From Elusimicrobiota bacterium (GTDB lineage Bacteria > Elusimicrobiota > Elusimicrobia > Elusimicrobiales > UBA9959), in assembly GCA_018829985.1 (NCBI GenBank), contig JAHJSU010000333.1:1-56857 (forward strand): 56,857 bases of DNA, read 5' to 3'. The translations under genes were made by a program, and so were the position numbers. Within the stretch, counting starts at the first letter, position 1. Every line of letters begins with the position of its first letter. Positions 4,566 to 53,859 of the stretch are shown here, piece by piece. The notes under the pieces were generated by a model that was not told the origin of the DNA, searched no databases, and was given only the letters and a program-made list of their open reading frames with translations.

Positions 4566-4611
4566 TTAGTCCTGCCCGCCACACATCTTCGGCGGGTCCG
4601 CCAAGGCTGTA

Positions 4612-5985
4612 ATGGCGGAAAAAACTGAGGACCAACTATTAAATAACGGGGAAAAAATGCAATCATTAACGGACTTATTCAAGATTCAGGACCTCAAGAA
4701 AAGAATATTATTCGTTATCGGGGCGCTGGCCGTTTACAGGCTTGGCGCCGTTATCCCGATCCCCGGCATCAACACCGCGGCCCTGCAGGCCATATTTCAG
4801 TCCCAGCAGGGCAGCTTGCTGGGATTCCTGGATATTTTCTCAGGCGGGGCGCTTAGCAGGTTCTCCATCTTCTCATTGGGCGTCATGCCTTACATCAACG
4901 CCTCCATCATAATGAGCCTGGTGCAGGGAGCGCATATCTTCCCGCTCCTCGACCATCTCCAGAAAGAAGGCGAATCCGGCCGTAAGAAGATCACGCAGTT
5001 CACCAGGGTGTTCACGCTTTTTCTGGCCGCTTTCCAATCGCTGGGCCTGACCATAGCCCTGACCAAGATGTCGCCGGCCGGCGGGGCTCCGATAGCGCCC
5101 AATGCCGATTTCATGTTCTACTTCGTTACCGTGCTTACGCTTACCACCGGCACTGTCTTCGTCATGTGGCTCGGCGAGCAGATAACCGAGCGCGGCATAG
5201 GCAATGGTATCTCACTCATTATATTCGCCGGCATTGTGGGCGGACTGCCCAGCGCCATTGCGAGCATGGTGAAACTGGTGCAGATAGAGGAAATAAGCCT
5301 GCTTACCGGGCTGACGATAATTGCCGTAGTGATGCTGGTCGTCGGATTTGTCGTGTGGGTGGAAACCGCGCAGCGCAAGATCCCCATCCAGTACGCGCAG
5401 CGCCAGGTGGGACGCAAAACGTACGGCGGGGTCAGCACTTTCCTGCCGCTTAAAGTGGACCAGTCCGGCGTTATCGCCGTTATTTTCGCGGTCTCGCTCA
5501 TAAGCGTGCCTTATACCATAACCCAGTTCAATCCCAACGCCGTCTGGGCGCAGACGGTTATGTCTTTCATGGACCACGGTAATATGGTTTACCAGCTTAT
5601 GTACGTGGCGCTTATTGTCTTTTTCTGTTACTTTTACAACTCGGTCAGCATCAACCCCAAGGATCTGGCCGAGAACATGAAGAAGTGGGGCGGATTTATC
5701 CCCGGCATCAGGCCGGGCGAGCCCACGGCTCATTACATAGAATGGGTGATGAACAGAATAACGCTGGGCGGCGCTCTTTTTGTGGCCATGATAGCGGTCC
5801 TTCCCGATTATATGCGGGACAAATTCAATGTGCCGTTTTACTTCGGCGGCACGTCGCTGTTGATAGTGGTCGGCGTCGCGCTGGACACGGTTGCCCAGAC
5901 GGAAGCCCACCTTATAATGAGGAATTACGAAGGTTTCTACAAGAACTCCAAGATCAAAGGCCGCTGGTTCAACGTGGGGAGTTAA
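4612..5985 (+). CDS. secY: Preprotein translocase subunit SecY
   Basis: Multi-TM protein with SecY motifs (SIFSLGVMPYINASII, GEQITERGIGNGISLIIF). Alternative start at ATG 4657. Confidence 0.93.
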   Translation: MAEKTEDQLLNNGEKMQSLTDLFKIQDLKKRILFVIGALAVYRLGAVIPIPGINTAALQAIFQSQQGSLLGFLDIFSGGALSRFSIFSLGVMPYINASIIMSLVQGAHIFPLLDHLQKEGESGRKKITQFTRVFTLFLAAFQSLGLTIALTKMSPAGGAPIAPNADFMFYFVTVLTLTTGTVFVMWLGEQITERGIGNGISLIIFAGIVGGLPSAIASMVKLVQIEEISLLTGLTIIAVVMLVVGFVVWVETAQRKIPIQYAQRQVGRKTYGGVSTFLPLKVDQSGVIAVIFAVSLISVPYTITQFNPNAVWAQTVMSFMDHGNMVYQLMYVALIVFFCYFYNSVSINPKDLAENMKKWGGFIPGIRPGEPTAHYIEWVMNRITLGGALFVAMIAVLPDYMRDKFNVPFYFGGTSLLIVVGVALDTVAQTEAHLIMRNYEGFYKNSKIKGRWFNVGS

Positions 5986-6840: not shown

Positions 6841-7029
6841 ATGGGTAACGGCTCACCACAGAGGCACGGAGAGCACGGAGTTTTCTCCGCCGAAGGCGGA
6901 CCCCCGCCAATACAACTCGGCGGGCGCAGCGCCGGGCTGTTTGGCGGGCACGGAGTTTTTTCCTCGGTGTTTCTCTGTGTTCTCCGTGTCTCCGTGGTTT
7001 TGTACTATCTCTTTTATTGCTGAGTAGTT
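6841..7029. repeat. Diverged MITE-B-like hairpin with nested REP units (adk-map spacer)
   Basis: Left end GGTAACGGCTCACCACAGAGGCACGGAGAGCACGGAG. Right end CTCCGTGTCTCCGTGG...GCTGAGTAGTTA abuts the map ATG. REP units CCGCCGAAGGCGGA etc. sit in the loop. Confidence 0.55.
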
Positions 7030-24383: not shown

Positions 24384-25175
24384 ATGAATAACGATTTCAA
24401 CTGCCTGCCCGCCTCCGCCAAACAATCCGGCGGATCCGCCTCTGGCGGAAAATTATTAAATAAACTGAAGATATGTAACACTTGGCAGGCGGGCAATTTT
24501 CGGGTTAGGGTCGCCTATGAGCCCGGAGAGGGCCGCTTGTGGAAAGGGCGGGGCATCGTCACGGACCTTTTCAGATTTTCCAATACCGTCTGCGCGCTTT
24601 TAAAAAGCGGCAGAAAAGATATCCGGATCTACTCCGGTCCGGACCACGCCGCCGCGGTCAAAGCTTTGGAAAAAGGCTCGGACCTTTTTTCCGAGATAGA
24701 TTTCCCTCCAGAAGTGGATAAATACGATAACTCTCCGTATACGGCCCTTTACGGCTCCGACGCGTCCCGGCCGGCGCTTATAGTCACCAATTCCGGCTCC
24801 CCGGCCGTAATGGCGCTTGGACGCGCCCCCGAGGTCCTTATAGGGTGCTTCGCGAATATGCCGTATCTCGCCGAATACTGCCGCAAATTCCCCATGGACA
24901 CGCTGATAGTGCCGGCCTGCCTGTATTACGACAGGACGCATGTCGAGGATTTCATCTGCGCCCGCGCTTTGGCCGAGGCCATAGAGGGCCGGGATTCCTT
25001 TGAGGCCGCCGTCGAGGAGATACACAACAGTTCCAGGGTGCTGGATTTTATGGCGTACCGGCCCGAGACCGGCAAAAGGGACATGGAGCTCATCCTGAAA
25101 AAGGGCAACATGCCGGTGGTGCCGAAGGTGAGATTATTGGGCGTGCACGGAAAAATAGCGGATGCGCGCGCGTAA
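24384..25175 (+). CDS. ComB-like 2-phosphosulfolactate phosphatase family protein
   Basis: Blocks IVTDLFRFSNTV, DNSPY, LIVTNSGS and HVEDFICA resemble the ComB family (from memory). Start uncertain. The first ~25 codons are REP-repeat derived. Confidence 0.55.
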   Translation: MNNDFNCLPASAKQSGGSASGGKLLNKLKICNTWQAGNFRVRVAYEPGEGRLWKGRGIVTDLFRFSNTVCALLKSGRKDIRIYSGPDHAAAVKALEKGSDLFSEIDFPPEVDKYDNSPYTALYGSDASRPALIVTNSGSPAVMALGRAPEVLIGCFANMPYLAEYCRKFPMDTLIVPACLYYDRTHVEDFICARALAEAIEGRDSFEAAVEEIHNSSRVLDFMAYRPETGKRDMELILKKGNMPVVPKVRLLGVHGKIADARA

Positions 25176-33303: not shown

Positions 33304-33453
33304 CCCGTCCGCCTTAGGCGGACGGGAGTTATGAGTTTTTCCGCCCCCGCCAAACAACCGGCGGGTCCGCCGAAGCTGTGTGGCGGAAAACGGCCGGCGG
33401 GCAAGCGGGTCCCCGCCAATACTACCCGGCGGGCGCAGCGCCTCTGGCGGAAA
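33304..33453. repeat. REP-like GC-rich unit cluster
   Basis: TCCGCCTTAGGCGGA, CCGCCAAACAACCGGCGGGTCCGCC and GTGGCGGAAAACGGCCGGCGGGCAAGCGGGTCC units. Single units also lie at 4575-4600, 12724-12765, 24408-24452 and 54075-54092. Confidence 0.85.
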
Positions 33454-39993: not shown

Positions 39994-41543
39994 GGCAGAT
40001 ACAGCGTGAAAACGGACCCTTTCCCGGGCTCGCTATGGGCCAGGATCGCTCCGTTATGCCTGTTTATGATGCCGAGGCAGACCGATAAACCGAGGCCTGT
40101 GCCCTTACCGGCCGGCTTGGTGGTAAAAAACGGGTCGAATACCCGGTCCAGTATTTCCTGCGGGATCCCCGAACCCGTATCCGCCAGGGAGACAGCCAGC
40201 AGTTCCTTCTTGTCCGGGGCCGGAGAGGCCAAGTGCGTTCTTATCGTGATCGTCCCGCCGTCGGGCATGGCGTCGCGCGCGTTGGTGAATAGGTTTAAGA
40301 ACACCTGCATCAGCTGCTGGAAATCGGCGTTGACCGGCGGGAGTTCCGCGCCGAACTCCCTTACGATGGTTATATGTTTCAACTCCATCTGCCTGGCGCA
40401 CAGGACAAGGGTCTCCTCTATCGCTTCATTGATGTTTATAGGCTCCAGCCTGGTCTTTTCCTGCCTGGCGAACGATAAAAGGGACGCAATTATCTTTTTG
40501 CAGCGGAAGACCGCCTTTTCAATGTCTTTAAGGTCCTGATAGCTCTGGGTGTCCGCGTTCATTTTTTCCAACACCAGCTGGGTCAGGCCGAGAATGCCCG
40601 AAAGCGGGTTGTTTATCTCGTGCGCCAGCCCTCCTGCCAGCTGGCCCAGGGCGGACATCTTCTCCGCCTGGATCAACTGCGACTGGGTTTCCTGAAGCTG
40701 TTTGTATAAATTCGCGTTCCGTAAAGCCAGGTTGACGAGGGAGGCGAAGATCTTCGCCCTCTGCATGTCGTTTTCGTTAAAGTATTCGTCCAACTGCATG
40801 CGGTTGATGTTTATCAGCCCCAGCAGCTTATTACCCTCTATCAGCGGAAGCAGCATCGCGAATTTCACTTCGCCGATATGCTCGATATCCGCGAACAGCG
40901 CGTCTTTCAGAGGGTCTTCTATCAGCACGACGGAAGTGCCTTTGTCATCGGCGAGCCGGGCGAGTATCCGGCTCGAGGCCTGGAGCCGCGATATCTTCCG
41001 CGGCTCGCCGTTCAGCCCTTCCGAGACGGCGATGTAAGGCCGCCCGGCCGCATCCAGCAATACCAGCAGGGCCTCGTCGGCCTTCAGGATCCGCACGGCG
41101 GAATCGATGATTATCCGGAGCAATTCCTCCGATTTTATCGTTGAAAAAATGGCTTTTGTTATATCGTTGAATTTGCGCTTTTCCAGTGCCCTTTCAACCA
41201 CCGCGAACAGCTCGGTTATCTCAAAAGGCTTATGCAGGTAATCGAACGCGCCCCTTCTCATGCTCTGGATGGCCGTGCCCATTGTCCCGTGGCCCGTCAC
41301 CATTATCACTTCCACTTCAGGGTCGAGCTTCTTTATTTCGCCCAGGGCCGCGATCCCGTCCATGCCGGGCATCATTATGTCCAGTATCACAAGATCGAAC
41401 TTGTCGCCGCTCATTTTCCGCACGCCTTCCTCGCCGGTAAACGCGGCGGATACTTTGTACCCCTGATCCGAAAGCCCCGCCGAAATCATCTCGGATATCG
41501 GCTCTTCGTCGTCCACGACCAGTATGTTCGCTTTATGGTTCAT
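39984..41543 (-). CDS. Hybrid sensor histidine kinase (REC-GAF-like-HisKA-HATPase_c)
   Basis: N-terminal REC (ILVVDDEE...LVILDIMMPGMDG), H-box LAGGLAHEINNPL, and G-boxes DTGSGI / GTGLGLSV. Confidence 0.9.
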   Translation of the reverse strand: MNHKANILVVDDEEPISEMISAGLSDQGYKVSAAFTGEEGVRKMSGDKFDLVILDIMMPGMDGIAALGEIKKLDPEVEVIMVTGHGTMGTAIQSMRRGAFDYLHKPFEITELFAVVERALEKRKFNDITKAIFSTIKSEELLRIIIDSAVRILKADEALLVLLDAAGRPYIAVSEGLNGEPRKISRLQASSRILARLADDKGTSVVLIEDPLKDALFADIEHIGEVKFAMLLPLIEGNKLLGLININRMQLDEYFNENDMQRAKIFASLVNLALRNANLYKQLQETQSQLIQAEKMSALGQLAGGLAHEINNPLSGILGLTQLVLEKMNADTQSYQDLKDIEKAVFRCKKIIASLLSFARQEKTRLEPININEAIEETLVLCARQMELKHITIVREFGAELPPVNADFQQLMQVFLNLFTNARDAMPDGGTITIRTHLASPAPDKKELLAVSLADTGSGIPQEILDRVFDPFFTTKPAGKGTGLGLSVCLGIINRHNGAILAHSEPGKGSVFTLYLPVG

Positions 41544-41597
41544 AATGTGCCTTATTAAGTCTTACATGCCGCCGCAAGCGTCAATTAAAAAGCGCTT

Positions 41598-41686
41598 CGG
41601 AAGGGGTGGGATTCGAACCCACGGTACGGCGATAACCGTACACCGGTTTTCAAGACCGGCGCCTTAAACCACTCGGCCACCCTTCC
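41598..41686 (-). tRNA. tRNA-Ser (anticodon UGA), CCA not encoded
   Basis: The reverse complement folds as a cloverleaf: acceptor GGAAGGG/CCCTTCC, anticodon loop CT-TGA-AA, long variable arm GTACGG..CCGTAC, and T-arm GTGGG-TTCGAAT-CCCAC. Confidence 0.93.
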
Positions 41687-41693
41687 TCGTTTT

Positions 41694-41960
41694 TTACTTC
41701 TTACAATTCGCTAATATTTTAAAAACTTGTTTTCGTCCATCGCCGGATTTTAGAAAATTCTCGCGCTTCCTGGCCTCGGTGTAATCCGGCACTCTCTCGG
41801 CATAAACCATCTCCCACGGGCGGCCTGATTTTGTTGACCTTGTCCTCCCGGAGTTGTGGGCCGCCAAGCGTGTTTCAGCATTGTCGGCCCTGCTGGACCC
41901 GGTGTAAAATCTGGCGGCTTTCTTACTGTAAAGAATATAAACGCAGGGCATATTTGTCAC
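41694..41960 (-). CDS. GIY-YIG nuclease-domain protein (small, stand-alone)
   Basis: VYILYS...FYTGSS...RLAAHNSG...E..RKRENFLK pattern of the GIY-YIG/URI fold. Ends 7 nt upstream of tRNA-Ser on the same strand. Confidence 0.8.
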   Translation of the reverse strand: MTNMPCVYILYSKKAARFYTGSSRADNAETRLAAHNSGRTRSTKSGRPWEMVYAERVPDYTEARKRENFLKSGDGRKQVFKILANCKK

Positions 41961-42204
41961 CGGTTTTTCCGCCTAAGGCGGACCCGCTTGCCCGCCGGCC
42001 GTTTTCCGCCACACAGCTTCGGCGGACCCGCCGGTTGTTTTCCGCCACACTACTCGGCGGACCCGCCGGACTGTTTGGCGGGGGCGGGGGAGGGCCGGGC
42101 TGTTTGGCGGGCAAGACCGGCGCCTTTCCGCCGGAGGCGGATCCGCCATGTTGTTTTCCGCCACACTGCTCGGCGGACCCGCCGGACTGTTTGGCGGGGG
42201 CGGA
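41961..42204. repeat. Cluster of GC-rich REP-like palindromic units
   Basis: Iterated units of the form GTGGCGGAAAAC..CCGGCGGGTCCGCC and TCCGCC-TAA-GGCGGA. Its reverse complement is near-identical to 53371-53490 and to part of 33345-33450. Confidence 0.85.
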
Positions 42205-42225
42205 AAACCACTCGGCCACCCTTCC
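42205..42225. repeat. 21-bp exact duplicate of the tRNA-Ser 5' end
   Basis: AAACCACTCGGCCACCCTTCC is identical to 41666-41686. Confidence 0.9.
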
Positions 42226-42449
42226 ATTAAAAAGCTGCAAGTGCAGCTTGCAACCCCGTTAGAGAACAAACTCGGCAGCGGACAGCGCCATATGCCCGCG
42301 TCCGCCTTAGGCGGACGGTTTTCTCTAACGGGGTAACTGCTAAATTATATCAAATAAGAATTTAAAACCGGTCGCGCGGCCGGTCGGCCTAAACAATCCT
42401 TCCCCGTCCGCTCCCGGCTGACTGTGACATGCCGCCGCCCTGTTTTTGT

Positions 42450-42478
42450 TTGCCTTACAACACCGAAACCACTACAAT
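42450..42478 (+). promoter_or_regulatory. Candidate sigma-70 promoter for hsdR
   Basis: TTGCCT-N17-TACAAT, 30 nt upstream of the hsdR ATG. Confidence 0.4.
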
Positions 42479-42508
42479 ATTATTAGATTTGTCAGGGGAT
42501 TTTCTTAA

Positions 42509-44878
42509 ATGTCAAACGAAGCCGATACTTGCCGCAAATTTGTCCTTCCCAAGCTATACGCCGCCGGCTGGACCGACGACCACATAAGCGAGCAGAAATA
42601 TTTCACGGACGGCAGGGTTATAACCGTCGGCAACGCCTGTGTGACCAAAAAACAGAAACGCGCGGACTATCTTTTGCGCTATCGCCGCGACTTTCCCGTT
42701 GCCATTGTCGAAGCCAAGGCCGGCTATAAAACCGCCGGCGACGGGATGCAGCAGGCCAGGGAATACGCTGAAATTCTCGGGCTGATGTTTGCCTACGCCA
42801 CCAACGGCGCTGAAATACTGGAACACGACTACACTACCGGCGCAGAAACCCGGCTTGAGACCTTTCCGGCTCCGGAAGAACTCTGGCAAAGGTACAGAAA
42901 GGCCAAAGGCCTGTCCGCTGACAGTATGGCGGAAAAAGTCCTTGCGCCTTATTATTTCAATCCGGACAAGGAGCCGCGTTATTACCAGCGTATTGCCATA
43001 AACTCCGTTGTTCAGGCGATACTCAAAGGCCGGAGGCGCGTGCTTATTACCCTTGCCACCGGCACCGGCAAAACAGAAGTGGCTTTCCAGATCGCCTGGA
43101 AGCTTTGGACCTCCAAGTGGAATAAATCGGGGGAGGCGCGCAAACCCCGGATACTTTTCCTCTCTGACCGTAGCATATTGGTGGACGACCCCAAAGACAA
43201 GACATTCGCGCCTTTCGGCGAGGCCCGGCATAAAATTGACGGCGAGGCTGTTAAAAGCCGGGAAATGTACTTCGCCCTCTATCAATCACTGGCGCAGGAT
43301 GAACGCCGCCCCGGCCTTTACAAAGAATATGCCAAGGATTTTTTCGACCTCATAATTGTAGACGAATGTCACCGCGGCAGCGCCTCGGACGAGAGCAACT
43401 GGCGCGAAATCCTTGAATACTTTGAGCCCGCCTATCAATTGGGCATGACGGCCACCCCGCTGCGCGAGGACAACAAAGATACTTATAAGTATTTCGGCAA
43501 TCCCCTTTATACCTACAGTTTAAAGCAGGGTATAGAAGACGGCTTTCTTGCCCCGTATAAAGTTCACCGCATTGTGCCCGAGGTTGATGCCTCCGGCTGG
43601 CGGCCCGCCGTGGGCCAGGTTGACCGTTATAAACGCGAAATCCCGGATGGGGAATACGGTACCCCGGATTTCGGCAGGCTTCTGGCCTTGCGCCCCCGCA
43701 CTGAGGCCGTGGCCCGGCATCTTACGGATTTTCTAAAGCGCACAGACCGCTTCGGCAAAACCATAGTCTTTTGTGAAGACCAGGAAGAAGCCGAAGAAAT
43801 GCGCCTCCTCCTCAACAACCTGAATGCCGACCTTGTAAAGCAATATCCTGATTATGTTTGCCGCATTGTCTCGGATGAGGGAGCTTTGGGGCGCGGGCAC
43901 CTTGGCCGCTTTCAGGAGCTGGAAACCACCACCCCCGTTATTGTCACCACCAGCAAGCTGTTGACCACCGGCGTGGACGTGCAGATGTGCCGCAACATCG
44001 TCATATATAAAGTGGTTAATTCTATGACGGAATTTAAGCAGATAATAGGGCGCGGCACCCGCATTAAAAGGGATTATAAAAAGTTTTTCTTTAATATCCT
44101 GGATTATACCGGCAGCGCCGCCCGGCGTTTCGCCGACCCGGATTTTGACGGAGAGCCCGCCTTGCTTACGCTGGAGGAGATTGACGCAGCGGGGAAAGCA
44201 AAACCCGGCGCCGAAAAAATCTTAACTCCGGAACAAGAGGCCGACTATACTCAAACCCGCAATGAGTTTGAGCCTCCTGTTGAAGATTTGGGGCATGACG
44301 GCGCCCCCAGGAAGTATTATGTGGATGACGGCGACAAAATCCGCATAGTGGCGGATTATGAGCAAAGCCTGGATGAGTCCGGCAATAAGCTTAAGACCGT
44401 GCGTTATACGGATTACACCTCTGAAAAAGTCCGCTCCATGTTTACCTCTTCAGCCGAGCTCCTGTCAAAGTGGAAAGTTCCGGAGGAAAGGGAGGCCATA
44501 ATAACCGCCCTTGCCGAACGGGGAATAACTTTTGAGGATTTGGTTAAAGCCACCGGCCAGGATGACGCGGACCATTTTGATCTCTTGTGCCATGTGGCCT
44601 ACAACGCCCCTTTGCGCTCACGGCGCGAGCGGGCTGAGCGGGTAAGACTTGGTAAAAGCGACTTTTTTGAAAATTTTTCTCCGGATGCCAGGCAGATACT
44701 AAATGAAATTTTAGAGAAGTATGTTGAGTACGGTACCGAGCAGTTTAAAGTGCCGGATATCCTCAAGGTTGATCCTATTTCAAAACACGGCAATACCCTT
44801 GAAATTGCCGCCGTCTTTAATGGTCCGGAGAACCTCAAAGACGCATTAACCAAGCTGCAAACCTTCCTATATCCCTAA
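42509..44878 (+). CDS. hsdR: Type I restriction enzyme R subunit (short, COG4096-like form)
   Basis: N-terminal nuclease-like region (EADTCRKFVLPKL...VAIVEAK). SF2 motifs LATGTGKT, IVDECHRG and MTATP. Confidence 0.88.
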   Translation: MSNEADTCRKFVLPKLYAAGWTDDHISEQKYFTDGRVITVGNACVTKKQKRADYLLRYRRDFPVAIVEAKAGYKTAGDGMQQAREYAEILGLMFAYATNGAEILEHDYTTGAETRLETFPAPEELWQRYRKAKGLSADSMAEKVLAPYYFNPDKEPRYYQRIAINSVVQAILKGRRRVLITLATGTGKTEVAFQIAWKLWTSKWNKSGEARKPRILFLSDRSILVDDPKDKTFAPFGEARHKIDGEAVKSREMYFALYQSLAQDERRPGLYKEYAKDFFDLIIVDECHRGSASDESNWREILEYFEPAYQLGMTATPLREDNKDTYKYFGNPLYTYSLKQGIEDGFLAPYKVHRIVPEVDASGWRPAVGQVDRYKREIPDGEYGTPDFGRLLALRPRTEAVARHLTDFLKRTDRFGKTIVFCEDQEEAEEMRLLLNNLNADLVKQYPDYVCRIVSDEGALGRGHLGRFQELETTTPVIVTTSKLLTTGVDVQMCRNIVIYKVVNSMTEFKQIIGRGTRIKRDYKKFFFNILDYTGSAARRFADPDFDGEPALLTLEEIDAAGKAKPGAEKILTPEQEADYTQTRNEFEPPVEDLGHDGAPRKYYVDDGDKIRIVADYEQSLDESGNKLKTVRYTDYTSEKVRSMFTSSAELLSKWKVPEEREAIITALAERGITFEDLVKATGQDDADHFDLLCHVAYNAPLRSRRERAERVRLGKSDFFENFSPDARQILNEILEKYVEYGTEQFKVPDILKVDPISKHGNTLEIAAVFNGPENLKDALTKLQTFLYP

Positions 44879-44879
44879 A

Positions 44880-44904
44880 CAGCACAATTATTACAATTGT
44901 GCTG
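44880..44904. other. Perfect 10-bp stem hairpin between hsdR and the abiE promoter (terminator or operator)
   Basis: CAGCACAATT-ATTAC-AATTGTGCTG. No T-run follows it. It abuts the -35 box. Confidence 0.5.
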
Positions 44905-44909
44905 TGGGC

Positions 44910-44938
44910 TTGACAAATAGGCCGCCACAGCGTATAAT
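44910..44938 (+). promoter_or_regulatory. Consensus sigma-70 promoter for abiEi/abiEii
   Basis: TTGACA-N17-TATAAT, an exact consensus. It is followed by the inverted repeat TTACAtggagTGTAA (44941-44955) and ATG 44961. Confidence 0.65.
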
Positions 44939-44960
44939 AGTTACATGGAGTGTAACTATT

Positions 44961-45617
44961 ATGCGGGCAAACCCGGCTGAAAACGAACAAAAACTGTTCC
45001 TGATAGCCGATGGCCAGGGCGGCTATTTTACCGCTAAACAGGCCCGTTCGGCCGGCTACTACAACAGACTTCGGTATTATCATGCTGAAAAAGGCCATTG
45101 GCTTGCCGTAGACCGCGGGGTTTACCGGCTTAGAAACTACCCGGCCTCAGAAAGGGAAGACCTGATCCGCTGGTCGCTTTGGAGCTGCGACCGGAAAGGA
45201 AATCCCCAGGCTGTATTCTCTCATCATACCGCCCTTGCTTTTCATCAGCTTGGCGATATTATGCCCGCTAAAATTCATTTTACCGTCCCGCCTAAGTTCC
45301 GGAAAAAAATTTCAGGCGGCTGCGTTGTGCACCGCGCAGCCCTGCCGCCGGAAGATATTGAACGGCACGAAGGTTTTTTTGTGACAACCCCTTTCCGCAC
45401 GCTGTTTGACGCCCATATACACGGGTTTGAACCGGACCAGCTGCAAAAAGCCGTTGTTGACGCTTATAAAAAAGGGTTTATCCCGGATTTTAAGATAAAC
45501 AATCCAAAGACAGCCGAAGACCCGGGGGGTGTTGCCGGCGGCATGGGCGATTTTATGGCTTATGTTGCACAAATTATTTCCGGTTACAGGAACAGTCTTG
45601 CGCATGGAAGACCATAA
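44961..45617 (+). CDS. abiEi: AbiEi-family type IV TA antitoxin / transcriptional regulator
   Basis: N-terminal wHTH-like LIADGQGGYFTAKQARSAGY...LAVDRGVYRL. 14-nt overlap with the abiEii start. The start was chosen downstream of the consensus promoter. Confidence 0.7.
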   Translation: MRANPAENEQKLFLIADGQGGYFTAKQARSAGYYNRLRYYHAEKGHWLAVDRGVYRLRNYPASEREDLIRWSLWSCDRKGNPQAVFSHHTALAFHQLGDIMPAKIHFTVPPKFRKKISGGCVVHRAALPPEDIERHEGFFVTTPFRTLFDAHIHGFEPDQLQKAVVDAYKKGFIPDFKINNPKTAEDPGGVAGGMGDFMAYVAQIISGYRNSLAHGRP

Positions 45618-46600
45618 ACTTTATAAATCAGCTACGGCTTTCAGGAGAGCGCTTGAGGATCGTCTTAAAGCCATTGCCGGCGGCAGCATGGACCTGCCCC
45701 GGCTTAGAAAATCCGTGGCTTTTGAAAGACTGCTGGCCCGGTTTTTTGCCGATACCGGCTCAGCCTGGCTGCTGAAAGGCGGTTATGCCCTGGAAATCCG
45801 TTACAGGGGAAGCTCGCGTTCCACAAAAGATATGGATTTCACGCTGCCGAGCGCTTTAATGCTCCCCGGAACCAATAACGCGGACCCCGCCGCTATACAT
45901 GTTGTTATTGGGCGTATTGCGGCCAGGGAGCTTAATGACTGGTTTGAATTCCGCGTAGGCCCTGAAGCGCAGGAAATTGACGGCGCGCCATACGGCGGGT
46001 ACAGGTTCCCCATGGAAGCGGTTGTGGACAAGCGGCAGTTCTCAACTTTTCATTTTGATGTGGCCGTGGGCGACGCTGTAATGGGTGAGCCCGAGTGGCT
46101 TTTGGGCCACGATATGCTGTCCTTTGCCGGAATCCCGCCGGCAAAGATAGCCCTGCTTCCAAAAGAGCGGCATTTTGCGGAAAAAATTCATGCTTACACT
46201 TTCCCGCGCGGTAATGTCCCCAATTCAAGAACAAGGGACCTGGTGGACATGGTGATTCTAATACAAAAAGGGCTGTCAAAACAAAAAACATCGGAAGCAA
46301 TTAAGGCCACGTTTAGTAACTACTCAGGTTCTCCGTATTTTTCACGTATTTTTTGTAGTGGCAAAGCTTGCTTTGCCTTTTTGGGCAGAGTAAACTCTGC
46401 CACTACGACGACAGACCTGAGTAGTTACCACGTTTAACAGAAGGGGGACTCACGCTGTTCCTAAGGCGCTGGAGTATCCGCCGGATAACTGGAAACTGCC
46501 GTTTAAGAATCTTGCCGAAGAAATAGGGCTTGAGCCCAAAGCAATGGACGCTGCTTTTGCCGTTGTGACGGATTTCTGGAACGAACTTTTTAAGGAGTAA
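45604..46600 (+). pseudogene. abiEii: AbiEii-family nucleotidyltransferase toxin gene, interrupted by a MITE
   Basis: KGGYALEIRY...RSTKDMDF NTase motif. The ORF now ends at 46437 in MITE-derived sequence. Removing 121 bp restores a 291-aa ORF ending at 46600. Confidence 0.8.
46316..46428. mobile_element. MITE-A copy (113 bp) inserted in abiEii
   Basis: 13-bp TIRs GTAACTACTCAGG/CCTGAGTAGTTAC. 8-bp TSD CACGTTTA at 46308-46315 and 46429-46436. 113/113 identical (reverse orientation) to 30396-30508. Confidence 0.9.
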
Positions 46601-46602
46601 CT

Positions 46603-48171
46603 ATGGCACGCTCAAAAACACCCGCTCAGCCGCAGACCACCGCCGGGCAGCTCAGTTCTATTATAAAATCCTGCCGCGACATAATGCGCAAGGACAAAGG
46701 CCTTAACGGCGACTCCGACCGCCTGCCCATGCTCACCTGGATAATGTTCCTTAAATTCCTGGACGATATGGAAAAAATGCGCGAGAACGAAAGCAAAATG
46801 GACGGCAAAAGATATGCCTCTGCCATACAGCCGCCCTACAGATGGCGCGACTGGGCCGCAAAAGAGGAAGGTGTTACCGGCGAGGATTTGATTTCTTTCA
46901 TCAATAACGACGAATGCGTAAGGCCGGACGGCAGCCGGGGCGCCGGGCTTTTCGCCTATCTTAAAAGGCTTGAGGGCTCCAGGAAAGGCGACAGGCGCAC
47001 GGTTATTTCCACCGTGTTCCACGGCGCCATAAACCGCATGCAGAGCGGCTACCTTCTGCGGGATGTTATAAACAAAATAAACGGCATACATTTCACCTCC
47101 ACCGAGGAGATTTACACCCTTTCCCATCTTTACGAAAGCCTGCTTAAGGAAATGCGGGATTCCGCCGGCGACGCCGGGGAATTTTACACGCCGCGCGCCG
47201 TGGTAAAGTTTATGGTTACCGCCATAAATCCCAGACTGGGGGAGACAGTGCTGGACCCTTCCTGCGGCACCGGCGGTTTTCTGGTTGCGGTCTTTGAGCA
47301 TATCAGGAACCAGTGCAAAAACGTAGAAGATAATAAAATTCTCCAAAACGACACTCTTTACGGCGGCGAGGCGAAATCCCTGCCGTACCTGCTTTGCCAG
47401 ATGAATTTGCTCCTTCACGGTCTGGATTCGCCGTCAATTGACTCCGGCAATTCCCTGCGCTTTCCGCTTAACGAGATAGGCGACAAGGACCGCGTGGATG
47501 TTATAGTCACAAACCCGCCCTTCGGCGGCGAGGAGGAAAAAGGCATACAGGGCAATTTCCCGCAGGACAAGCAGACCGCTGAAACCGCGCTGTTGTTTTT
47601 GCAGCTTATTATGCGAAAACTCAGGCGCAAAGGCCCGGAGTCAAAGAAAGGCGGCCGCGCGGCGGTAATCGTGCCCAACGGCACGCTTTTCGGCGACGGC
47701 GTTTCGGCAAGAATAAAGGAAGAGCTGCTTAAAGAATTCAACCTGCACACAATTGTGCGCCTGCCCAACGGCGTGTTCGCGCCTTACGCCGGTATTCCCA
47801 CCAACATACTTTTCTTTGACCGCGGCGGCCCCACCAAAGAAATCTGGTACTATGAGCAGCCGCTCCCCGAAGGCCGCAAGAATTACACAAAAACCCAGCC
47901 CATCCAGTTTGACGAGTTTAAGCCCTGTCTTAACTGGTGGAAAAAGCGCGAGGAAAACGACCAGGCCTGGAGGGTAAAGGCTGAAGATATCCTGAAATAT
48001 GACGAGAACAAAGTCCTCGTTTCCGCCAACCTGGACATAAAAAATCCCAAGTCCCTGGAAGAGTTTGAACACCTAGCGCCGGAACAGCTTGTAGAGGATA
48101 TCCTGCAGAAAGAACATAAAGTAATAGAAATAATGGCCGAGCTAAAAGAGCTTTTAAAGAAGGTCATGTAA
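46603..48171 (+). CDS. hsdM: Type I R-M system DNA methyltransferase subunit M (N6-adenine)
   Basis: Motif I DPSCGTGGFL, motif IV NPPFGG, and an HsdM N-terminal domain. Confidence 0.92.
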   Translation: MARSKTPAQPQTTAGQLSSIIKSCRDIMRKDKGLNGDSDRLPMLTWIMFLKFLDDMEKMRENESKMDGKRYASAIQPPYRWRDWAAKEEGVTGEDLISFINNDECVRPDGSRGAGLFAYLKRLEGSRKGDRRTVISTVFHGAINRMQSGYLLRDVINKINGIHFTSTEEIYTLSHLYESLLKEMRDSAGDAGEFYTPRAVVKFMVTAINPRLGETVLDPSCGTGGFLVAVFEHIRNQCKNVEDNKILQNDTLYGGEAKSLPYLLCQMNLLLHGLDSPSIDSGNSLRFPLNEIGDKDRVDVIVTNPPFGGEEEKGIQGNFPQDKQTAETALLFLQLIMRKLRRKGPESKKGGRAAVIVPNGTLFGDGVSARIKEELLKEFNLHTIVRLPNGVFAPYAGIPTNILFFDRGGPTKEIWYYEQPLPEGRKNYTKTQPIQFDEFKPCLNWWKKREENDQAWRVKAEDILKYDENKVLVSANLDIKNPKSLEEFEHLAPEQLVEDILQKEHKVIEIMAELKELLKKVM

Positions 48172-52909: not shown

Positions 52910-53859
52910 AAATACTTTTTGTCACCGACCTGCACGGAAACGAGGCCAAATTCCGCCGTGGTTTTGATATTGCCAGGGAGACCGGCGCAAAAGCCGTTAT
53001 AAACGGCGGCGATATGCTCTGCCACGGGGCGGACATTCACAAAGAGCAGCGGGAGTTTATAGAAGGCTTTCTTGACGGGCACTTCGCCGAATATGAACAA
53101 AGCGGCATTTACCATCTTGGCTATCTCGGAAACGACGATTTGCGGATATATGACCCGCTGTTTGATTCGGTTTGCTCGAAATACAAATACGCAGTGAATC
53201 TGGCGCAGTCCCGGTTCGAGCTCTATGGTTTTGAATTTATAGGCATGAACTGGGTTACGGATTACCCGTTCAGGCTGAAGGACAGGTGCCGCCGCGACGG
53301 CCCCGGCTATGTTTTCCAGGAACAGTTCGGCTCCGGGCTGCTGTCCACTCCCGAAGGCTTCAAAGAGCTGCCCGCCCCCGCCAAACAACCGGCGGGTCCG
53401 CCGAGTAGTGTGGCGGAAAACAACCGGCGGGTCCGCCGAAGCTGTGTGGCGGAAAACGGCCGGCGGGCAAGCGGGTCCGCCTCTGGCGGAGAGGACTGGC
53501 CGGCTTATGCCGCCACGCTGCCTACCATTGAGAATGAACTTGCCGCCCTTCCCAAGCCGAAGACAGTCGCTAAAACGGTTTATGTAATCCACATGCCGCC
53601 TTCCGGGCTTGGCCTGGATGTAACCGACTCCGGGGAGGAGGTAGGCTCAAAAGCCGTCAGCCGGTTCATCAAGAAAACAGGCCCGCTATTGACCTTGCAC
53701 GGCCACATCCACGAATCGCCGTCAATGAGCGGCGTATGGAAAGCCAAAATCGGGAAAACGGTGTGTATTCAGCCCGGCCAGATGAAAGGAAAAGCCTTAA
53801 GTTATGTTCTGATAAACCTGAAAAGCATGGAACTGGAAAGATTTGAAGAGCCGCTGTAG
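52906..53859 (+). CDS. Calcineurin-like metallophosphoesterase carrying an in-frame REP-array insertion
   Basis: ILFVTDLHGN, GGDM, GNDD, HMPP and LHGHIHES motifs. 4-nt overlap with the helicase gene. Confidence 0.8.
   Translation: MKILFVTDLHGNEAKFRRGFDIARETGAKAVINGGDMLCHGADIHKEQREFIEGFLDGHFAEYEQSGIYHLGYLGNDDLRIYDPLFDSVCSKYKYAVNLAQSRFELYGFEFIGMNWVTDYPFRLKDRCRRDGPGYVFQEQFGSGLLSTPEGFKELPAPAKQPAGPPSSVAENNRRVRRSCVAENGRRASGSASGGEDWPAYAATLPTIENELAALPKPKTVAKTVYVIHMPPSGLGLDVTDSGEEVGSKAVSRFIKKTGPLLTLHGHIHESPSMSGVWKAKIGKTVCIQPGQMKGKALSYVLINLKSMELERFEEPL
53371..53490. repeat. REP-like unit array (~120 bp) inside the metallophosphoesterase CDS
   Basis: Near-identical to the reverse complement of ~41965-42090 and to 33345-33420. 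Translated in-frame as PAPAKQPAGPPSSVAENNRRVRRSCVAENGRRASGSASGG. Confidence 0.85.

Follow-up and report, generated by a model that had tools for sequence, protein, structure and literature searches.

The window analysed here, a stretch of 56,857 nucleotides from an Elusimicrobiota bacterium (assembly GCA_018829985.1, contig JAHJSU010000333.1), carries a tRNA-Ser(UGA) gene preceded by a small gene for a GIY-YIG nuclease and, further upstream, by a partial second copy of the tRNA that is interrupted by two clusters of GC-rich hairpins. We think it somewhat probable, from sequence comparisons, that this locus is one copy of a widespread family of selfish cassettes that reside in the loops of tRNA genes and consist of a double GC hairpin module together with an 85-amino-acid (aa) GIY-YIG nuclease, the presumed cutting enzyme. 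New from this window are the empty sites found in genomes of the same genus, the split tRNA copy of 46 nucleotides (nt) and a genome-wide bloom of the hairpin module that is tied to one clade of the nuclease.

The tRNA-Ser(UGA) locus and its empty counterparts

The tRNA-Ser(UGA) gene on the minus strand at 41598-41686, first called in a sequence-only reading of the window, is confirmed by both ARAGORN and Rfam. It begins with a 21-mer (41666-41686) that recurs exactly at 42205-42225. The same reading had put this repeat beyond chance, rightly so, as no match is expected in shuffled sequences, and a chance origin was rejected on that ground. It had, however, taken the duplicated 5' part of the tRNA to be 21 nt long, whereas the upstream copy comprises nt 1-46, interrupted in the D loop (between nt 21 and 22, hereafter 21/22) and again in the anticodon loop (36/37, within the UGA anticodon). 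The suspicion that 42205-42225 might be part of a decayed tRNA holds to the extent that it belongs to this partial copy, but two relatives of the same genus show no second tRNA copy.

These two relatives (G001 and G002, G000 being the genome containing the window) provide the empty-site comparison that had been proposed for this locus, and both sites are empty. In G001, a syntenic histidine kinase gene (88% identity) and the tRNA (98%) are followed directly by the leader and promoter, with the cassette, both hairpin clusters and a nearby miniature inverted-repeat transposable element (MITE) all absent, and in G002 an equivalent promoter, tRNA-Ser(UGA) and kinase gene are found with nothing inserted. 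As the native leader and promoter adjoin the upstream partial copy in the window just as they adjoin the tRNA of G001, it is the partial copy that occupies the ancestral position. An insertion of roughly 540 bp had been suggested; the stretch between the repeats is indeed absent in the two same-genus genomes, but the gene-bearing insert proper measures only about 271 bp. Such presence or absence at a conserved site in close relatives is a property of free-standing homing genes. No module lies within 1.5 kb of tRNA-Ser(UGA) in ten relatives that are without the GIY-YIG gene.

The core of the promoter block (TTATTTGATATAATTTA) recurs upstream of the tRNA-Ser(UGA) of G002, and the conserved extended -10 box of this block (Table 1) probably acts as the tRNA-Ser promoter. 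A consensus promoter scan did not flag the box and gave no clear promoter just upstream of the intact tRNA. An Rfam scan of 40500-43500 at E<=1 returned the tRNA only and, with an intact tRNA following the insert, a group I intron, a tRNA intron or another known RNA family was rejected; the loci of eight relatives (seven with no tRNA beside the GIY-YIG gene and one cut by a contig end) likewise gave no Rfam family besides tRNA. An integrase-type att site was also rejected: as had been noticed from the start, no integrase, tyrosine or serine, is encoded between the two copies, and what is repeated is the 5' rather than the 3' part of the tRNA (nt 1-46).

The open reading frame (ORF) originally placed at 41694-41960 is real, its product scoring 51.9 bits against Pfam PF01541 (cut-off 22.6 bits) over residues 4-72, a complete GIY-YIG domain and the only domain present, but the starts of homologues match the ATG at 41951, which gives 85 aa rather than 88. 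Catalytic-residue conservation, read from an alignment of 27 homologues, is high (Y16, G18, R28, H32 and E64 invariant, Y5 nearly so). A profile of homologues run against the PDB finds the UPF0213 entries 1YWL (E=2e-7) and 1ZG2, and also SLX1, and the AlphaFold2 (AF2) model (mean predicted local distance difference test, pLDDT, 90.8) has Slx1 nuclease domains as its top fold matches (template-modelling score 0.62-0.64, 31-36% identity), with I-TevI and UvrC ranking below them. The protein therefore belongs, by sequence and by fold, to the Slx1/UPF0213 branch of the GIY-YIG superfamily, as a single 85-aa domain without the C-terminal RING/zinc domain of eukaryotic Slx1; in relatives, tRNA sequence even encodes the C-terminal tails. 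Slx1 cuts branched and stem-loop DNA as a structure-specific nuclease, and by analogy the window protein may act in a structure-specific manner as well.

Table 1. Features of the tRNA-Ser(UGA) locus, in window coordinates
Feature	Position	Strand	Basis
Intact tRNA-Ser(UGA), adjoining the native downstream histidine kinase flank	41598..41686	-	ARAGORN; Rfam tRNA 64.6 bits; 98% identity to G001 tRNA
7-nt spacer AAAACGA (sense strand), GIY-YIG stop codon to tRNA nt 1	41687..41693	-	Sequence
GIY-YIG nuclease gene, Slx1/UPF0213 type, 85 aa + stop, catalytic residues intact	41694..41951	-	Pfam, alignment, PDB profile search, AF2
6-nt leader ACAAAT before ATG	41952..41957	-	Sequence
Copy of tRNA nt 37-46 (AAAACCGGTG), tRNA sequence resuming past the hairpin cluster	41958..41967	-	Exact 10-mer; resumption of 5-15 nt in relatives too
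144-nt composite hairpin-module cluster at 36/37, anticodon loop of displaced copy; CCCGCC start, TCCGCCTTAGGCGGA end	41968..42111	-	
Copy of tRNA nt 22-36	42112..42126	-	Exact 15-mer, repeat family D5
78-nt hairpin-module insert at 21/22, D loop of displaced copy	42127..42204	-	Repeat search, sequence
Copy of tRNA nt 1-21 (21-mer), ancestral position of tRNA 5' end	42205..42225	-	Exact match; contiguous with native leader
Native tRNA leader, 24 nt (AAGCTGCACTTGCAGCTTTTTAAT, sense strand)	42226..42249	-	92% identity to G001 leader directly preceding its tRNA
Unrelated MITE, 80 bp (terminal inverted repeat CCCCGTTAGAGAA), between promoter and leader, outside the cassette	42254..42333	.	Absent in G001
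Extended -10 box (TGATATAAT, sense strand), putative native tRNA-Ser promoter	42344..42352	-	31-nt block 100% identical to G001

A proposed cassette family at tRNA genes and its hairpin module

The GIY-YIG gene is sporadic, being found in 9 of the 41 related genomes screened for it and in none of the same genus. Further tRNA-adjacent copies with partial duplications, a search for which the sequence-only reading had recommended, do exist: among 23 paralogous loci of same-family relatives, 11 are followed, at a distance of 0-190 nt, by a co-oriented tRNA (Ser, Gln, Leu, Pro or Ala), and at these 11 the 5' part of the downstream tRNA is repeated upstream of the GIY-YIG gene, as it is at many of the loci of the 80 closest homologues. 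A nuclease-driven cassette had been considered conceivable, and the gene is the constant partner of such duplications in many genomes, while its part in the cutting is something that we infer. The 80 homologues span at least nine phyla; homologues with 50-70% identity come from Thermodesulfobacteriota, Planctomycetota, Omnitrophota, many Patescibacteria, Pseudomonadota, Nitrospirota, Bacteroidota, Ignavibacteriota and Elusimicrobiota. A co-oriented tRNA lies directly downstream of the gene in 57 of the 80 loci, where it is overwhelmingly tRNA-Ser(UGA/CGA), and directly upstream in 14. Loci without a tRNA call, when read (L061, L063, L082, L083, L084), turned out to be masked, cut by a contig end, arranged in tandem arrays or provided with a truncated tRNA.

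The breakpoints recur as well. In 17 loci the upstream copy starts near nt 1 and extends as far as the 36/37 break, 16 of them with 100% identity, and other loci break at 21/22 or carry both insertions as the window does (the D-loop insertion point 21/22 is also seen in L066, L072, L096, L110, L113, L126 and L130). Beyond the hairpins come another 5-15 nt of the local tRNA sequence, then a short leader and the ATG. At Tyr, Lys, Val, Arg, Ala, Gln, Leu and Pro tRNAs cassettes are present too, and their fragments match the local tRNA. The order of parts defines three architectures: A, that of the window, with fragment, module, GIY-YIG gene and tRNA; B, in which module-capped 5' and 3' halves of a resident tRNA enclose the gene and a different, complete tRNA-Ser (clearest in L069, L080 and L085, where the resident tRNA is split at 36/37, a module-capped 3' half being found downstream in L090, L096 and L113 as well); and C, found in Ignavibacteriota, Bacteroidota and Chlorobiota, with tRNA, gene and then a tRNA 3' end bearing a T-loop module. 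The cassette unit forms tandem arrays in L061, L084 and L012, and a 413-bp unit extending from fragment start to tRNA end is common to L081 and L097, whose flanks are unrelated. The window gene falls within a clade of 44 sequences from many phyla, mostly at tRNA-Ser, in a GIY-YIG tree that is based on 83 columns and poorly resolved; over its 78 labelled rows the tRNA amino acid changes 12 times, no fewer than expected of scattered singletons. As far as such sequences can tell, the cassette family spreads horizontally. A full-text literature search found no description of this layout of tRNA, GIY-YIG gene and hairpins.

The hairpins between the tRNA parts, initially described as a cluster of repetitive extragenic palindromic (REP) units, are not passive filler but copies of a conserved module of the cassette, placed in the D loop and the anticodon loop of the displaced copy, and the REP units of the window are this module in short and composite forms. 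The module is a double hairpin of about 30 nt with the consensus CCCGCC-AGA-GGCGGG-TCCGCC-TYC-GGCGGA (in its general, expandable form CCCGCC-N3-GGCGGG-TCCGCC-N3-GGCGGA), found at 36/37 or 21/22 across phyla and 5-38 nt before the ATG in most loci; a strict double hairpin occurs at most 160 nt upstream of the ATG in 50 of the 80 loci. Its first stem varies with compensating changes (CCAGCC/GGCTGG, TCAGCC/GGCTGA, TGAGCC/GGCTCA and others). Double changes affect 6 of 12 base pairs (29 cells), a result reached by none of 500 shuffles, and the pre-selection of the covariation windows for pairing inflates the percentage paired but not these compensating changes.

The module is not confined to tRNA genes. 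G000 contains 462 TCCGCC..GGCGGA and 292 CCCGCC..GGCGGG hairpins (about 750 in all), and shares such genome-wide amplification of extragenic hairpins with systems of REPs and REP-associated tyrosine transposases (RAYTs). Among 145 doublets, the consensus flanks are (T/C)(G/T) before the module and AA after it (position +1 is A in 131 of them and position +2 in 124), which agrees with the anticodon loop (CTTG before and AAAAC after the insertion point) and the D loop (GTTT before and AAGG after), and several target sites are hairpin loops resembling the UGA anticodon loop. Two repeat families that G000 has in common with G001 are uninterrupted in the latter exactly where the former carries a module (between GCTTT and AAGCC, and between GGCTG and AAGGA). 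The insertions at those repeats have no target duplication and their borders are exactly CCCGCC...GGCGGA, so that the module resembles IS200/IS605-type elements in inserting beside a short motif without duplicating it. Comparison of occupied and unoccupied repeats shows the module to insert cleanly and independently between T(G/T) and AA. The intergenic DNA of G000 and G001 is too diverged to give empty orthologous sites for dispersed modules, and these clean junctions come from paralogous repeat copies only.

Within the window, further module copies lie at 4575-4619, 6886-6924, 24414-24449, 33340-33412 and 53371-53490. The one at 4575-4619 occupies the loop of a terminator-like hairpin, between TAGTCCTG and AAAAACTGAGGAC; contig C135 has a paralogue without the module, with the sequence TAGTCCTGAAAAACTAAGGAC. 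The 144-nt cluster of the tRNA locus is itself a dispersed composite, with 97% identity over 121 nt to the 120-nt composite at 53371-53490, and genome BLAST matches spanning at least 80% of the length number 14 for this cluster and 18 for the 78-nt insert. Two further palindromic repeat families, one with arms of the word AAGGATAAAGG... and the other with GCCATAAGC... arms, occur on contigs C72, C302 and many others; both are also found in G001 and serve as module landing sites.

Amplification of the module follows the nuclease. Junction 12-mers number 130 in G000 against 8 for the reversed control, and in a phylum-wide screen of 301 genomes amplification is otherwise clear in G021 (48 against 7), G066 (27 against 0) and G058 (12 against 0), with a small excess in G016 (8 against 0). 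The four genomes with clear amplification are exactly the four with a match at E<1e-35 to the A1 clade of GIY-YIG proteins, to which the window gene belongs, as had been predicted beforehand, and G095, which has the next best match (1e-27), has no modules. Contrasts within genera (G000 with G001 and G002, G021 with G012) agree. Since about three independent lineages are involved, the association between the module and the GIY-YIG clade is strong without being proof of cause.

Relics of such cassettes are found elsewhere in the genome. The tRNA-Ala(CGC) and tRNA-Ala(GGC) genes (contigs C304:5309-5456 and C316:9791-9938) are each preceded by the same 73-nt relic, made of tRNA nt 1-26, a single hairpin replacing the anticodon arm, nt 44-52 and some 22 nt homologous to the end of the GIY-YIG ORF that G021 retains in full at its tRNA-Ala(CGC). 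A CGC-type base in the nt 44-52 piece of the GGC relic hints that the unit may have been copied between the two Ala genes, although gene conversion could do likewise. On contig C28 (3449-3620), tRNA-Ser(CGA) is preceded, at a distance of about 10 nt, by the C-terminal half of a GIY-YIG ORF, the orthologous tRNA of G002 being without insert, and on contig C13 (2919-3040) nt 1-14 of tRNA-Thr(CGU) are repeated 116 bp upstream, with three hairpin modules and no GIY-YIG gene between.

Other partial tRNA copies and paralogues were also noted in this genome. A promoter-proximal 5' half of tRNA-Ser(GCU), ending in the anticodon arm and followed by unrelated DNA, lies on contig C196 (2185-2245); neither an intact tRNA-Ser(GCU) nor an intact tRNA-Ser(GGA) was found in the assembly, which is 96% complete. 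On contig C131 (12015-14779) it is the 3' half of tRNA-Gly(GCC) (nt 40-74) that is repeated, 2.7 kb downstream, a classical signature of integrase-type insertion. A second GIY-YIG paralogue (contig C192:511-741, 41-45% identity) adjoins no tRNA; a ACCCCCACACCAA motif upstream of it recurs downstream inside a CACCCCCACACCAA hairpin, which is followed by a (CAGG)n microsatellite.

Among the neighbours of the tRNA-Ser(UGA) locus, the 13-bp inverted repeat reported earlier at 42254-42333 is genuine (13/14 bp) and marks the MITE copy, which is unrelated to the cassette. The MITE family is represented in this genome by elements of 59-113 bp with 13-nt terminal inverted repeats (TIRs) and TAAA/TTTA flanks, with 17 intact TIR-bounded copies and 74 matches to the TIR core. 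Upstream of the tRNA promoter lies a defence cluster (window 42509-48171) comprising the type I restriction protein HsdR, an AbiEi/AbiEii toxin-antitoxin pair and one further ORF taken by eye for HsdM; beyond the promoter, the flank of G001 differs from that of the window. An accessory island had been thought to begin at the 21-mer repeat, but this restriction-modification and Abi island is not bounded by the repeats of the tRNA locus.

Proposed movement of the cassette and competing explanations

If the locus is a cassette residing in tRNA loops, as we favour, its layout could be understood as follows. The original 5' part of tRNA-Ser(UGA), nt 1-46, would stay behind its own promoter, the modules in its D and anticodon loops would disable this displaced copy, and the intact copy directly after the nuclease gene would keep the cell viable. 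The GIY-YIG gene would probably be transcribed from the tRNA promoter and released on tRNA processing. The nuclease may recognise structure, not sequence, and nick the loops and stem bases of single-stranded or cruciform DNA folded into hairpins or cloverleaves; nicking at the loops of tRNA genes and at module ends would then drive the movement of both the module and the gene-bearing unit. Breakpoints all fall in the D, anticodon or T loops or at the base of the acceptor stem (nt 1, +/-7), which structure recognition would explain. The second copy of the tRNA 5' part could arise in two ways. A unit running from a module to the next anticodon loop may be excised and then reinserted at that loop in a similar tRNA, a route in keeping with the tandem arrays, with the Ala relics and with architecture B, or the target may be duplicated in place, as is suggested by the jumps to Tyr, Lys and other tRNAs with their locally matching fragment and resumed nt, to which the cut-and-paste route does not fit.

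Several observations weigh against this account. RAYT-like Y1 transposase genes, whose products could move hairpins, are present in G000 (8 genes) and in 16 of 18 cassette-bearing genomes of the Candidate Phyla Radiation. The 85-aa domain is without a DNA-binding module, leaving the choice of site by the protein alone unproven, and GIY-YIG identity is uncorrelated with that of the tRNA 5' part or T arm (rho about 0, 1128 locus pairs). Vertically inherited loci, moreover, keep the 36-nt copy identical to their own tRNA despite a diverged adjacent leader: L122 and L125 differ at three sites, where each copy matches its own tRNA, and L085 shows a partial conversion tract. Such identity beside a diverged leader points to gene conversion, or to selection on the copy or a function of it, and a purely selfish model predicts neither. 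Lastly, exact deletion between direct repeats would also leave the same "empty" sites, but gain is more economical than deletion, since within family f1 only G000 and G021 have the GIY-YIG clade, and they have it in different gene contexts. A stronger version of the cassette reading, which we hold only tentatively and regard as rather doubtful, is that the 85-aa Slx1-like nuclease is the only enzyme needed to move both itself and the module of about 30 nt, by cutting loops in folded single-stranded DNA with tRNA genes as its home, in which case it would define a new class of DNA transposon or REP system.

The modules might instead be ordinary REPs that owe their movement to a host Y1 transposase of the RAYT type, with the GIY-YIG gene as a passenger or a domesticated rider on the tRNA promoter and the loops of the dead tRNA copy simply fitting the target. 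The Y1 transposase (Y1_Tnp) genes mentioned above are found nearly everywhere, most relatives included, and the modules are like REPs and IS200 elements in being hairpins that insert at a short motif with no target duplication. Of the eight Y1_Tnp loci of G000, however, only one has modules nearby (up to 1.5 kb away, on a single side, in a fragmented assembly), which is not the RAYT flanked by its own REPs; G001 and G002 have 2 and 6 Y1_Tnp genes and no module amplification; the module sequence is conserved across phyla beside the GIY-YIG gene, whereas REPs are lineage-specific; and amplification tracks the GIY-YIG clade (4/4 genomes with it, 0/297 without). We consider this origin improbable. 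Nor does classical homing seem likely, in which the nuclease would read the sequence of the tRNA-Ser anticodon loop and cut cassette-free alleles for repair from the donor, with the fragment and the intact tRNA as homology arms and the hairpins doing no more than disabling the displaced target copy or stabilising the mRNA. It would account for the great constancy of the 36/37 site, the strong preference for tRNA-Ser across phyla, the variable presence among close relatives and the extent, from fragment to tRNA end, of the unit common to unrelated genomes, and free-standing GIY-YIG homing enzymes such as SegB do act in tRNA gene clusters (PMC2330249). But the window protein has no DNA-binding domain, and its fold resembles that of Slx1 and not that of I-TevI. 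The same site is also present in the intact tRNA next to the gene, which would be cut as well, and homing would leave unexplained both how the module spreads independently and how jumps to Tyr, Lys, Val, Arg, Ala, Gln, Leu and Pro tRNAs come about.

Two further explanations have very little to recommend them in our judgement. The locus could be a decayed tandem duplicate of the tRNA, with REPs piled up in dead DNA and the GIY-YIG gene an old syntenic neighbour, and no mobile cassette at all, as might be argued from the upstream copy being a longer partial tRNA (nt 1-46) instead of a bare 21-mer and from a genome full of several repeat families; against this, the same layout recurs between unrelated flanks at numerous tRNAs and across many phyla, same-genus sites are empty, tandem arrays exist and the exact breakpoints 21/22 and 36/37 recur. 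Similarly, the nuclease could have a functional RNA or DNA partner in the tRNA fragment and its hairpins, which would serve as guide, scaffold or immunity element and which selection would keep identical to the tRNA. The identity of the 36-nt copy to its own tRNA beside a diverged leader, the co-variation of L122 and L125 and the covarying hairpin stems would agree with such a role, but conversion between adjacent genes explains the identity (as in the partial tract of L085), and fragments are short or decayed at many loci. We know of no GIY-YIG enzyme that uses a guide.

Related systems and significance

The tRNA-loop cassette that we favour can be set beside several known systems. Slx1 and UPF0213 proteins (COG2827, YhbQ-like) are closest to the window protein in sequence and fold, and their structure-based cutting fits breakpoints in loops and at hairpin ends; unlike eukaryotic Slx1, the window protein is reduced to the 85-aa core and has no Slx4 partner. 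To our knowledge, no UPF0213 protein is part of a mobile element, and no link of UPF0213 to tRNA genes or hairpin repeats was found in the searchable literature. In the Seg family of phage T4, SegB is encoded by a free-standing GIY-YIG homing endonuclease gene in a tRNA gene cluster (PMC2330249). As is the case for such genes, the cassette is a small selfish gene near tRNA genes with variable presence and horizontal spread, but Seg proteins and I-TevI have a DNA-binding domain and recognise long sequences, with neither hairpin modules nor target duplication. As the window protein is without such a domain, the cassette falls outside homing of the Seg/I-TevI type by its defining property. The "gene hybrids" of fungal mitochondrial mORFs likewise combine an endonuclease gene inside an essential gene with a duplicated part that keeps the function and a displaced pseudo-fragment. 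The mORFs, however, form in-frame fusions with protein genes and supply a 3' part of foreign origin, whereas the cassette has a tRNA target, a locally matching 5' copy and breakpoints marked by hairpins.

REP/REPIN-RAYT systems and IS200/IS605 elements resemble the module in having short GC hairpins in hundreds of copies, insertion at a short motif without target duplication, a one-direction orientation and single-stranded hairpin DNA as the likely substrate. They differ in that the partner gene here is a GIY-YIG rather than an HUH Y1 gene, the Y1 genes of this genome are not flanked by modules and the module is conserved across phyla; the cassette encodes the GIY-YIG protein only, with no internal HUH Y1 transposase of the IS200/IS605 kind. 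Integrase-borne islands likewise occupy a tRNA gene, a portion of which is directly repeated, but in the cassette there is no integrase, the repeat is the 5' and not the 3' part, and the element measures only about 0.3-0.5 kb. Like the composite at 53371-53490 of the window, Rickettsia palindromic elements are small hairpin repeats found in frame within protein genes, but they have neither a known associated nuclease gene nor a link to tRNA loops, and the cassette has both. The element is not an integrase island, a tRNA intron, a MITE with TIRs and target-site duplications, or an IS200/IS605 element. By analogy, it may work somewhat like a homing nuclease gene, an mORF and a REP/RAYT system at once, none of which alone covers it.

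For genome annotation, partial tRNA copies split by hairpins and minigenes for a "GIY-YIG family protein" are to be expected at tRNA loci, along with assembly breaks and false tRNA calls. A minimal structure-specific nuclease with defined DNA hairpin partners would be a possible tool and merits biochemical study. If the nuclease were the sole mover, no REP family before this one would have been linked to a nuclease other than an HUH enzyme, the element would rank among the smallest self-contained mobile elements, and the hundreds of REP-like hairpins of this genome, some of them in frame inside genes, would be its non-autonomous offspring. A module able to escape from its cassette and to populate a genome with REP-like repeats by the hundred would offer a testable origin for one class of bacterial repeats. 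If the cassette reading is true, many bacterial phyla carry a selfish element of about 0.3 kb, with a single 85-aa enzyme, that settles in essential tRNA genes without killing its host, by a route of colonisation unlike that of integrases, introns or known transposons.

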